8,956 bases of DNA from a virus (lineage: Duplodnaviria; Heunggongvirae; Uroviricota; Caudoviricetes): IMG/VR virus record IMGVR_UViG_2751185961_000010. One strand, written 5' to 3'. The translations under genes and the position numbers were made by a program. The notes beneath the pieces were generated by a model. It was not told the DNA's origin. It worked only from the letters and a program-made list of their open reading frames with translations, and did not search any database. Numbering within the stretch: position 1 is the first letter of the stretch; every line of letters starts with the position of its first letter. Of this stretch, positions 5,956-8,956 are shown in pieces.

Positions 5956-7361
5956 AGAAAAAAGCGCGGGGACAGGGTGATGATTCGTCACTGGCACTTA
6001 ACCAGATGGGGGCCAGCCAGCGTGGCAGGGTTCTTCTTGCTCATTACGGAGGGGAACTGGCAATAAACCCTGACTCTGACACAGTTCACTATTACAACGG
6101 GGTTATATGGTCCCCCGTGCAGGACAAAGAGCTACAGCGCACAATGGCGCAAATCTTCATTGACGAAGATATCTGCTATTCACAAAACGCCATTAAATCG
6201 GCAGTTGACACAATGAAGTTAAGTTTACCCGTAATGGGTAATACCGCCCGTCACCTGATTGGATTCAGCAACGGGGTATTTGATACCCGTACAGGTGATT
6301 TTCGGGAACACGATAAAGATGACTGGCTGTTAATTGCCAGTGAGTTACCGTTCACTCCACCAGCAGAGGGTGAAACGCTGGCAACACATGCGCCGAATTT
6401 CTGGAAATGGTTGCGCCGTTCGGTGGCAGAGAATGACCGCAAGGCGGATCGCGTACTGGCAGCGTTATTTATGGTGCTGGCGAACCGGTACGACTGGCAG
6501 TTATTCATTGAGGTAACTGGTCCTGGTGGAAGCGGTAAAAGCGTTATGGCGGAGATTTGTACCATGCTGGCGGGTAAGGCCAACACGGTATCGGCAAGCA
6601 TGAAGGCACTGGAGGATGCAAGGGAACGCGCGTTAGTGGTTGGCTTTTCACTGATTATTCTGCCGGATATGACCCGCTACGCGGGTGATGGAGCAGGAAT
6701 AAAGGCCATTACGGGCGGTGACAAGGTGGCAATTGACCCGAAACACAAAGCGCCATACTCAACGCGTATTCCGGCGGTAGTGCTGGCGGTTAACAACAGC
6801 GCCATGTCATTCAGTGACCGCAGCGGGGGGATCTCGCGTCGTCGTGTGATATTCAATTTTTCGGAGGTTGTACCGGAAAACGAGCGCGATCCGATGCTGC
6901 CGGAAAAAATAGAGGGTGAGCTTGCTGTAGTGATTCGTCATCTGCTTACGCGCTTTTCTGACCAGGACGAAGCCAGACGCCTGTTACATGAGCAGCAGAA
7001 ATCAGAAGAAGCCCTTGCAATAAAGCGTGAGGGGGATTCGCTGGTGGACTTCTGCGGCTATCTCATGTCGTCGGTAATGTGTGACGGCCTGTTAGTCGGT
7101 AATGCTGAGATTATTCCGTTCAGTCCGCGCCGTTATCTCTATCACGCCTATCTCTCGTATATGAGGGCGCACGGTTTCAGTAAGCCCGTAACACTGACGC
7201 GCTTCGGTGCAGATATGCCAGGCGCAATGGCGGAATATGGCAGGGAGTATATGAAAAAGAGAACGAAAGAAGGTGTGCGATCAAACGTGATACTGATGGA
7301 TGAGTCTGAGGACTGGCTGCCGTCATGTGCACCAGTGAAAAATGAGGGTGATAAAAATTAA
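5865..7361 (+). CDS. P4 alpha-like replication protein: D5_N / P4-family primase C-terminal domain with SF3 helicase P-loop NTPase and probable origin-binding C-terminal domain (498 aa from the first ATG)
   Basis: LIGFSNGVFDTRTGDFREH...LFIEVTGPGGSGKSVMAEI contains the Walker A motif GPGGSGKS in the context typical of D5/P4-alpha family NTPases. Immediately followed by the iteron array. No Shine-Dalgarno at ATG 5865, and the frame is open from 5709. Confidence 0.88.
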   Translation: MHHNERQNWRNYLDIERKNISDGLVIELPVKKKARGQGDDSSLALNQMGASQRGRVLLAHYGGELAINPDSDTVHYYNGVIWSPVQDKELQRTMAQIFIDEDICYSQNAIKSAVDTMKLSLPVMGNTARHLIGFSNGVFDTRTGDFREHDKDDWLLIASELPFTPPAEGETLATHAPNFWKWLRRSVAENDRKADRVLAALFMVLANRYDWQLFIEVTGPGGSGKSVMAEICTMLAGKANTVSASMKALEDARERALVVGFSLIILPDMTRYAGDGAGIKAITGGDKVAIDPKHKAPYSTRIPAVVLAVNNSAMSFSDRSGGISRRRVIFNFSEVVPENERDPMLPEKIEGELAVVIRHLLTRFSDQDEARRLLHEQQKSEEALAIKREGDSLVDFCGYLMSSVMCDGLLVGNAEIIPFSPRRYLYHAYLSYMRAHGFSKPVTLTRFGADMPGAMAEYGREYMKKRTKEGVRSNVILMDESEDWLPSCAPVKNEGDKN

Positions 7362-7374
7362 GTTATAGAAAAAC

Positions 7375-7604
7375 TGTTCACCGCTGTTCACCCTGTGACA
7401 AATACATTTGATATCAGTAAGTTAATGGGTGAATAGTTTTGTAAAACTATTCACCGGAGTGTTCACCCGTTCACCCTTTTGTTTGATTTTTGAACGGCGA
7501 GCGGGTGAACAGGGTGAACAGTTGGTGAACACCTTTACAAAAAGTGTTCACCCTTTAACCTCATGAATTTAAAGATGAAATAGCAAAAGGTGAACAGTTG
7601 AACA
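7375..7604. repeat. Iteron array (P4 type I iteron octamer TGTTCACC / GGTGAACA in both orientations): candidate replication origin (ori/crr-like)
   Basis: Forward TGTTCACC at 7375, 7385, 7460, 7545 and CGTTCACC at 7468. Reverse GGTGAACA at 7504, 7513, 7524, 7589 and GTTGAACA at 7597. Degenerate palindrome GGTGAATAGTTTT-GT-AAAACTATTCACC at 7428-7455. Spacings of about 9-11 bp. Confidence 0.8.
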
Positions 7605-7648
7605 GTCTTTTGGCATAAATTTTTATTTATTCCTTTGAGGAAAATTTT

Positions 7649-8098
7649 ATGACAGAGAAACACGCTAAAAAATCACACTCACCCGCCATCGATTTAACCG
7701 AACAGGGATCTGTTGTGAAGTTCGTATCGGCACGAGGCAGGCCAGTGCTTTTAGTGCCAGGAAAACATCTGCATTACTGCGATGAAAATCATATCCCGAT
7801 CCTGATTGTCTGGAAGCGAACAGTCTACGCCGATGTGACATGGCTGAATGACTCGCTGGTGTTGATACACCGCGACCTGTTTGAGCGTGAAGAATTCCGG
7901 CGAGACATTGAGGATAGGGCAGAAAAAATCTATGAGCAATATGCAGCAAACAGCAAAAGAGCCGCACGGGCAATCACTCACCATTTCATGACGCTGTATG
8001 ACCTGAAAGCAGAAGACGCAGAAAAAGCAGCGTGTGATTTATTTGATATGACAATGGATATTATCCAGGAGTACCGGAACAAGGAGCGCAGACCATGA
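7649..8098 (+). CDS. hypothetical protein (149 aa), translationally coupled to the downstream ssb
   Basis: GAGGA 7 nt upstream of the ATG, preceded by an AT-rich region with a TTGGCA -35-like hexamer. Stop overlaps the ssb start (ATGA). No family recognised. Confidence 0.75.
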   Translation: MTEKHAKKSHSPAIDLTEQGSVVKFVSARGRPVLLVPGKHLHYCDENHIPILIVWKRTVYADVTWLNDSLVLIHRDLFEREEFRRDIEDRAEKIYEQYAANSKRAARAITHHFMTLYDLKAEDAEKAACDLFDMTMDIIQEYRNKERRP

Positions 8099-8535
8099 CA
8101 GCACAGATTGCAGCTTACGGGCGGCTGGTGGACGACCCGCAGGTAAAACAGACCAGCAAGGGTACAAACATGACGCTGGCGAGAATGGCGGTATCCGTAC
8201 CGTGCCATAACGCAGATGACGGACAGGCGACTCTATGGCTTGCCGTAACAGCCTTTGGTAAACAGGCCGACCATCTGGCGAAGCACCAGAAAGGCGACCT
8301 TATCAGCGTGGCGGGTAACATGCAGATAAGCCAGTGGACCGGACAGAACGGGGAGACGCGGCAGGGGTGGCAGGTTATCGCCGACAGCGTAATCAGTGCC
8401 CGTACTGTTCGCCCTGGTGGAGGTCAGAGAAAACACACAGGCCAGCCACAAAACACAGGGGCACAGACCTCATCACGGGGACATCCACCGCAGAATAATC
8501 ACGATGACCTGTTCCCTGACGATATCCCGTTCTGA
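8095..8535 (+). CDS. ssb: Single-stranded DNA-binding protein (divergent SSB, OB-fold, acidic C-terminal tail DDIPF), 146 aa
   Basis: Pattern G.LV.DP......G...........DG..TLW..V.AFGK.A..L.K..KGD...V.G......W..Q.G..R....V, a Gly/Gln-rich linker, and the C-terminal ...DDLFPDDIPF that matches the SSB tip motif (D-D-D-I-P-F). Confidence 0.88.
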   Translation: MTAQIAAYGRLVDDPQVKQTSKGTNMTLARMAVSVPCHNADDGQATLWLAVTAFGKQADHLAKHQKGDLISVAGNMQISQWTGQNGETRQGWQVIADSVISARTVRPGGGQRKHTGQPQNTGAQTSSRGHPPQNNHDDLFPDDIPF

Positions 8536-8723
8536 GCGGTTCGAAAGCTGCTCAGTGTCTTGCAGGTGAGAGTCCTGCCGCAGTAATTGGTTAGTTTGAC
8601 TGCGTAGCGATGGCGTACATGTGGAGGGTGACCGAAGCATGGGAGCAACGCCGGATAAACGTGTCCCCCGATCCAGACAGTGGGCGCGCGCAAATACACA
8701 GCCCGTAACTGACAGTGAACTCA

Positions 8724-8956
8724 GGTAATGCTGCCAACTTACTGATTTAGTGTATGATGGTGATTTTAAGGTGCTTGCGTGGCTTCCATTTCCATCAGAT
8801 GTCCTTCCTGCTCCGCTACTGAAGGCGTGGTGCGTAACGGCAAAAGCACTGCCGGACATCAGCGCTATCTCTGCTCTCATTGCCGTAAAACATGGCAACC
8901 ACAGTTCACTTACACCGCCTCTCAGCCCGGTACGCACCAGAAAATCATTGATATGG
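8724..8956 (+). mobile_element. IS1-family insertion sequence, partial; begins with the terminal inverted repeat and continues rightward out of the window
   Basis: GGTAATGCTGCCAACTTACTGAT at 8724-8746, followed by the InsA start. This is an exact inverted copy of window positions 1-98. Confidence 0.92.
8779..8956 (+). CDS. insA: InsA (IS1), N-terminal fragment running off the window
   Basis: GTG start; translation (M)[58 protein letters not shown] matches recalled IS1 InsA with a few substitutions. Confidence 0.88.

Follow-up and report, generated by a model that had tools for sequence, protein, structure and literature searches.

What does a small protein of no recognisable family do when its gene lies directly behind a replication origin and ends inside the start of a gene for a protein that binds single-stranded DNA (an SSB)? 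This question is raised by a stretch of 8,956 nt, IMG/VR record IMGVR_UViG_2751185961_000010 (the whole of which we call the window), in which the open reading frame (ORF) of a 149-aa protein, ORF149, immediately precedes and slightly overlaps an ssb gene. The region represents the distal half of a replication module from an E. coli phage satellite that is P4-like and of the type of the phage-inducible chromosomal islands (PICIs). Its central features are the following, with coordinates in the window and strand:

5533-7361, plus strand: P4-type primase/helicase (D5_N, DUF5906 and Pox_D5; phrog_864, E 1.1e-160)
7375-7596, no strand: iteron cluster, eight copies of GGTGAACA/TGTTCACC, resembling a P4-alpha-type ori/crr
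7597-7648, plus strand: AT-rich spacer of ~24% GC that holds the Shine-Dalgarno sequence of ORF149
7649-8098, plus strand: ORF149, 149 aa, ATG start, in an exchangeable slot upstream of ssb
8095-8098, plus strand: ATGA overlap, with the stop of ORF149 inside the ssb start ATGACA
8095-8535, plus strand: SSB of a satellite family, 146 aa, ATG start, with an OB domain (~1-105), a G/Q/P-rich linker and a PDDIPF tip

A preliminary description of this DNA had presented the two proteins as a pair. The reading that we favour, if cautiously, is a composite one, in which this is a satellite replication module whose SSB serves satellite replication, while ORF149 is independent accessory cargo and not an obligate partner of the SSB. 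The satellite SSB itself is a known feature of these elements; ORF149 is an uncharacterised family within a variable slot that shares its stop and start with ssb.

The gene upstream of the satellite ssb is exchangeable

The two ORFs, 7649-8098 and 8095-8535, share the ATGA at 8095-8098 as had been described, and each is preceded by a Shine-Dalgarno-like sequence, i.e., GAGGA 9 nt before the ATG of ORF149 and AAGGAG within the 3' end of ORF149 ahead of the ssb ATG. The start of ssb is also a boundary of similarity between islands. Strain 2013C-3033 matches the window at 96.4% identity over exactly 8095-8535, from the ssb start to its stop, with unrelated flanks on both sides; its ssb is preceded by a phrog_27268 gene (103 aa), and its primase is of the DUF927 type. 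In two other E. coli islands similarity to the window begins at 8094, and in a third at 8083.

We surveyed the position upstream of ssb in 80 IMG/VR loci with a satellite SSB, namely those most similar to the query SSB. The gene directly upstream was a member of phrog_1231 (~85 aa) in 64 of these loci, a member of a 101-aa family in 11, and a remnant of ORF149 in two; a 4-nt overlap onto ssb was seen in 63 of the 80, whatever the upstream gene. These proportions are biased because the sampled loci are those closest to the query, though the existence of at least three families is unaffected by this. Remote homology among the slot families, for which a local F-x-TL...AE-x-AE resemblance might speak, was considered and rejected (hhalign probability ~1% or less). 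At least three unrelated kinds of gene, ORF149 among them, occupy the slot.

What creates the 4-nt overlap is the slot itself, given that any occupant stops at the TGA inside the ATGACA of the ssb start. As the start of ssb supplies its stop codon, any gene that occupies the slot is translationally coupled to ssb. No description of the variability of this slot or of its shared stop/start design was found in the literature that we searched.

The distribution of the two genes in E. coli differs as well. Among 5,426 complete E. coli genomes, 1,784 encode an SSB of the satellite type (as many as six copies per genome) and only 109 encode ORF149, so that the former is ~16 times commoner. Some O145:H28 and O157:H7 genomes have kept the primase, SSB, ProQ/FinO and PerC genes with ORF149 reduced to a 209-bp remnant. 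The internal deletion allele of E. coli O145:H28 RM13514 (L114 2215-2705; also H61-H65) retains 209 bp of ORF149 that are 95% identical to the window and lie between an undamaged primase gene and an undamaged ssb. At least four primase/iteron specificities are found together with ORF149, and a role as an origin-specific regulator was rejected on the grounds that it goes with four different iteron/primase types. In Pantoea, the ORF149 homolog and ssb lie 118 nt apart.

Given the frequencies, the module boundaries, the slot survey, the tolerated loss and the varied replicons, we regard ORF149 and the SSB as co-expressed neighbours and not as a co-evolving pair. Of the pairing put forward in the preliminary description, adjacency and coupling hold, while a specific partnership is weakened by the exchange of slot genes, the frequencies and the deletion alleles.

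The same arrangement could be explained by ORF149 being a dedicated replication accessory that works with the SSB, either as a mediator of helicase or primase loading or as a binder of the SSB tail, with the other slot families being analogous but non-homologous. The order primase, origin, ORF149 and SSB is kept in E. coli, Klebsiella, Rahnella and Pantoea, with the 4-nt overlap in the first three, and almost all of the 80 loci have a slot gene ahead of the SSB. We nonetheless consider a dedicated accessory unlikely: the same SSB allele (96%) is found behind a slot gene of another family, four different types of primase and iteron accompany ORF149, the latter has been deleted in some lineages whose primase and SSB are intact, and the Pantoea genes are separated by the 118-nt gap.

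ORF149 belongs to an uncharacterised protein family

No Pfam, NCBIfam or PADLOC family could be assigned to the 149-aa protein, in line with what had been stated from the sequence alone. Its sole PHROG match is marginal (phrog_24381, function unknown; E 0.0021 over 25 residues), the best E-value in a profile search of the PDB was 0.41, and scanning 54 members of the ORF149 family against Pfam gave nothing consistent. A PX domain protein was rejected as a candidate identity, with no Pfam PX match at E <=0.1 and a PDB match to sorting nexin-15 at E 0.41. The RefSeq label 'PX domain-containing protein' of an E. coli homolog (NZ_CM143724.1 3450059-3450448) looks unreliable.

ORF149 is nevertheless a real gene and not a chance ORF, because it is conserved across genera, with homologs in E. 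coli, Salmonella, Klebsiella, Rahnella and Pantoea that share 28 invariant columns, and because its ratio of non-synonymous to synonymous substitution rates (dN/dS) is 0.22 when compared to the O103 allele. The identical protein is recorded on 376 contigs. A genome-wide locus scan with one alignment returned a single locus, from Rahnella; a second, broad alignment offered no conserved stretch that could serve as a query.

We modelled the protein with AlphaFold2 using a 15-sequence alignment (mean pLDDT 82, and ~90 over residues 25-147). In the model, residues 1-19 form a disordered N-terminal leader and residues ~24-147 a compact alpha/beta core with the predicted order beta-alpha-beta-beta-alpha-alpha-alpha-beta-beta-alpha, of which the last helix is long. 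The structure-based search for which the preliminary description had called gave no significant match, and its statement that the protein has no assignable family stands: Foldseek against the PDB reached at best E 0.016 with TM <=0.44, none of it significant, and there was no match in BFVD at E <=0.001. The weak neighbours that recurred were the DHHA1 domains of RecJ, Cdc45 and NrnA and the C-Ala domain of AlaRS, which we take as a lead only; superposition of ORF149 on DHHA1/C-Ala domains was not significant. DHHA1 domains handle single-stranded DNA, and as the top structural neighbours, weak as they are, they speak for the replication accessory described above. ORF149 as a DNA mimic was not supported either (isoelectric point ~6.7; family median 6.6).

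The leader of ORF149, KKSHSPAIDLTE (7649-7705), resembles the N-terminus of phrog_1231, KKQHSRPIDLTE (L030 3747-3820, L032 907-980). At the DNA level the shared 5' leader is weak, with ~65-70% similarity over ~40 nt. Judging by sequence, ORF149 may have replaced the body of a phrog_1231-type gene and kept its 5' end.

Distant relatives of ORF149 occur in integrons and at defence loci

An exhaustive profile search of 1.84 billion representatives yielded 59 relatives of ORF149, most of them 115-130 aa long and 20-30% identical (profile E 1e-8 to 1e-10). They have in common the motif N-x-W-F-x-x-C...I-P-Y-I-x-V...A-D-V-x-W-D-Y. Only P50 and A128 are invariant across this broad family and C44 nearly so, and since these positions are unlike an active site, the family does not look enzymatic. 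ORF149 is probably a small, non-enzymatic alpha/beta protein.

The genomic contexts of these relatives are diverse. In Ectopseudomonas alcaliphila, a 124-aa relative forms a single-gene cassette within a chromosomal integron array, flanked by attC-like repeats, and a homolog that works as such a lone cassette is unlikely to need a satellite SSB. The array itself (L017 4620-10592, L018 27-9246) comprises 11-17 attC-like repeats of ~74 nt and an IS110-family insertion. Another relative, of 122 aa, lies between the mod (718 aa) and res (998 aa) genes of a Type III restriction-modification operon and overlaps res by 4 nt (L003 649-6187; also L004-L006), which is an unusual three-gene layout for such an operon. 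A third, of 134 aa, is found 107 nt upstream of a Septu system (L112 6001-8428, L113 420-2847; PtuA E 1.6e-165, PtuB E 6.7e-99). Further relatives lie at the end of a prophage, close to a tail gene, or have toxin-antitoxin pairs in their neighbourhood.

These contexts point to an autonomous accessory role of ORF149, as far as gene neighbourhoods can be read. They also bear on the replication accessory, because relatives that are stand-alone integron cassettes or sit in restriction-modification and Septu loci have no replication genes nearby; on the other side, a distant homolog in a Salmonella satellite without SSB lies 25 nt after a P4-like primase. With distant relatives that are found as integron cassettes and in or next to defence systems, ORF149 most likely plays a part in conflicts between phages, satellites and hosts.

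A bolder extension, which we hold to be doubtful, is that the ORF149 family is a new, self-sufficient conflict protein of mobile elements that moves among integrons, defence loci and satellites. The ssb-proximal slot would then be an unrecognised hotspot of accessory genes whose occupants are switched on together with satellite replication, since the start codon of ssb also serves them as a stop.

The SSB belongs to a satellite family and diverges from the host SSB

The SSB passes the thresholds of its families (Pfam PF00436, E 6.4e-17 and 62 bits against a cut-off of 26; TIGR00621, 65.3 bits against 53.95), matches phrog_44 (E 6.9e-39) and 26 solved SSB sequences (best E 1.5e-10), and ends in PDDIPF, which bears out the earlier identification of an SSB with an acidic DDIPF tail. 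The characterisation of its OB core as shortened and divergent was fair as well: it is 27% identical to the chromosomal SSB of E. coli (EcSSB) over the OB domain, with a shorter L23 loop and N-terminus, and its linker comprises ~35 aa compared to ~55 in EcSSB. Residues W48, F54 and W81 align with W54, F60 and W88 of EcSSB, and they do not vary among nine satellite SSBs. EcSSB W40 has no equivalent owing to the shorter L23 loop, and the equivalent of H55, a residue of the tetramer interface, is a leucine.

At the C-terminus, G/Q/P-rich residues ~106-137 are followed by HDDLFPDDIPF. The tip has the form D-x-I-P-F in E. coli islands and is not kept in Rahnella or Pantoea. The tail of the E. coli SSB is established to recruit host factors. 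Both genes of the module are under purifying selection (dN/dS 0.13-0.22). We found no functional study of E. coli satellite SSBs in the literature that we searched.

The preliminary description had suggested that this SSB and ORF149 might serve island replication, hijack helper replication, or act as an anti-defence or decoy factor. As an anti-defence or decoy device, the module would mask or mimic a phage SSB and thus blunt or trigger defences that sense SSBs, or else hijack helper replication. The premise of the preliminary description, namely that phage SSBs are sensed by some defence systems, has support in the literature, given that Retron-Eco8 (PMC13402713), AbpAB (PMC10732053) and DARNA (bioRxiv 10.64898/2026.02.22.705581) are all activated by phage SSB. 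The divergence of the satellite SSB from the host protein (27% identity) and the presence of ORF149 relatives in or beside defence loci would fit such a device. However, neither protein matches a PADLOC defence profile, nothing in our analysis ties the satellite SSB to any sensing system, and the fixed position of the SSB beside primase and origin in thousands of islands fits plain replication, so that we regard an anti-defence or decoy device as quite improbable.

The origin is of the P4 alpha type

The 8-mer GGTGAACA occurs eight times within 7375-7596, in both orientations, against 0.27 copies expected (0 of 200 shuffles), and is found nowhere else in the window. It is identical to the 'ori type 1 repeat' of the annotated genome of phage P4, in which all 11 copies of the 8-mer fall within the annotated crr and ori. 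A literature search for the P4 iteron sequence had retrieved unrelated primer matches only, and the iteron was checked against this annotated genome instead. We assign the origin to the P4-alpha type because the 8-mer matches the annotated ori/crr repeat of P4 and because the alpha primase gene is directly followed by crr there. A stretch of 24% GC at 7600-7649 comes after the iterons and ORF149 starts 53 nt past their cluster, so the earlier placement of the gene directly downstream of the origin was correct.

The island of E. coli O103 carries the cluster at the same place, and the intact homolog of the primase, from E. coli O103:H2 12009, comprises 608 aa. In the window, where the gene is frameshifted, the primase scores 98.3 bits against TIGR01613, under the cut-off of 108.7. 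Across islands, the gap between the primase and the slot gene holds a different iteron in each, GGTGAACA, TGAACCAACC, GGTAGACG, TGAACCGACT, TAACCCGCA or TATCCACCC, matching a different type of primase, and the ssb after it is conserved. Gaps with such island-specific iterons are located at L001 9076-9297, L007 5578-5944, L002 6907-7159, L025 5707-5973, L028 3404-3723 and L027 8217-8512.

The island of the window is decaying

Outside the features given above, the window contains the following:

85-1149: integrase
1792-1995: AlpA-like regulator (phrog_2790/66)
after the AlpA-like gene and before the isrK and C4 RNAs: two Rha-type regulators
4391-4467 and 4492-4579: isrK and C4 antisense RNAs, above the Rfam gathering scores
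between the C4 RNA and the primase/helicase: DUF4222 gene
8560-8713, plus strand: group II intron, 5' fragment (D1-D4 model; Rfam RF02003)
8725-8956, plus strand: left end of IS1, comprising its terminal repeat and the beginning of insA (PF03811, N-terminal domain of InsA, E 1.5e-20)

The integrase, AlpA-like and Rha-type regulators, C4/isrK RNAs, DUF4222, P4-type primase/helicase and iterons support the earlier assignment to a satellite-type island. The isrK and C4 RNAs are P4-type immunity RNAs, and the ORFs listed in that stretch are probably not genes. The unidirectional order of int, alpA and primase with the origin downstream of the primase corresponds to the layout of Gram-negative PICIs, using the criteria of PMC10111431.

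This copy of the island is decaying. By alignment, its primase gene is split into ORFs of 140 aa and 498 aa by an 8-bp tandem duplication, GGTATACA GGTATACA, at 5824-5839. In related islands, ssb is followed by ProQ/FinO and PerC genes, or in others by capsid or terminase genes, in place of which the window has the intron fragment and IS1. The fragment begins 25 nt past the ssb stop, matches the Rfam model group II intron D1-D4-4 over its full length (67.1 bits compared to a gathering score of 49), and is cut off by IS1, with no intron-encoded protein within the window; IS1 extends from ~8725 and also truncates the remainder of the island within the window, and the N-terminal zinc ribbon of InsA starts at 8779. 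Promoter-like sites were no commoner than in shuffled sequence, with no convincing own promoter before ORF149, and a scan for terminators found no terminator-like site. The island is probably immobile, though ORF149 and ssb are intact, and its decay may have left the module unable to function as a replicon.

It would be consistent with this state that ORF149 and ssb are a silent remnant of a dead island and have no current function in this genome, as the frameshifted primase, the intron fragment and IS1 in place of the usual genes after ssb, and the lack of a convincing own promoter before ORF149 might suggest. We find this improbable since both ORFs are intact, the identical ORF149 protein is recorded on 376 contigs, the dN/dS values of 0.13-0.22 indicate families maintained by selection, and even the 498-aa helicase part of the primase has its own ATG.

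Proposed role of the module and points against it

Under the composite reading of a replication SSB and an independent cargo gene, induction would bring transcription from the early operon upstream, continuing across primase gene and origin, with joint production of ORF149 and the SSB. At the origin, the single strands that the satellite helicase opens up would be coated by the SSB, whose D-D-I-P-F tip may link it to the host replisome and restart proteins. In this way, the satellite would have its own supply of SSB while competing with a helper phage. ORF149 would act alone as accessory cargo, probably by binding some partner rather than by catalysis.

Several observations weigh against this reading. 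In Enterobacterales, all intact close homologs that we examined precede an SSB gene, and among four relatives three overlap it as in the window, which could reflect a real functional link. The weak but recurrent DHHA1 and C-Ala neighbours of the ORF149 model are nucleic-acid-handling domains and would also fit a replication accessory. The survey of 80 loci was dominated by near-identical E. coli islands, which biases its frequencies. The satellite SSB lacks the equivalents of W40 and H55 of EcSSB. Finally, an 'accessory conflict protein' is guilt by association from about a dozen contexts, several of them on short contigs.

Satellite SSB genes are present in about a third of complete E. coli genomes, and they emerge from our analysis as a fixed, exchangeable module, while the gene fused to the ssb start varies, its three families of occupants all being without known function. 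Were the slot genes replication mediators, this would explain how one SSB can be shared by satellites with many primases. If they were conflict genes, the slot would be a new place for defence or counter-defence functions that are expressed only upon satellite induction. In either case, the 149-aa family links satellites, integron cassettes and defence loci and offers a concrete small protein to test.

Comparison with known systems

Compared to phage P4, the window has the identical 8-bp iteron (GGTGAACA/TGTTCACC), with both inverted and direct copies, and has it just past the primase/helicase gene, like the crr of P4, and both elements encode C4 and isrK immunity RNAs. In contrast, P4 has no ssb or ORF149-like gene after crr, where attP and int are found instead, and its alpha protein comprises 777 aa compared to the 608 aa of the intact O103 form of the window's primase, which is frameshifted in the window.

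The SSB shares with its chromosomal counterpart in E. coli (PDB 1EQQ, 1EYG) the OB-fold family, the equivalents of W54, F60 and W88, a disordered linker and the D-D-I-P-F tip. However, it is shorter (146 compared to 178 aa) and only 27% identical, has lost W40, carries leucine for H55, and has a linker of ~35 instead of ~55 residues.

Like ORF149, phrog_1231 genes occupy the slot upstream of ssb with the same 4-nt overlap, and the N-terminal leader (KK.H...IDLTE) is possibly shared. They are about half the size of ORF149, though, and have no detectable homology to its core (hhalign ~1%).

The closest parallel to the module as a whole is found in Gram-negative PICIs, for which Mageeney et al. 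2023 (PMC10111431) described a replication category of Primase, SSB and DUF5906, with the SSB co-located with the primase and a mapped origin. The ssb of the window likewise comes after primase and origin in a unidirectional order, in the PICI position before PerC and the late genes, and its product belongs to the same family, with 69-97% identity to the SSBs of other E. coli islands that we examined. The window differs from these elements in the part of the island downstream of ssb, which has been replaced by the group II intron fragment and IS1, and in the gene upstream of it, where the rare ORF149 takes the place usually held by phrog_1231.

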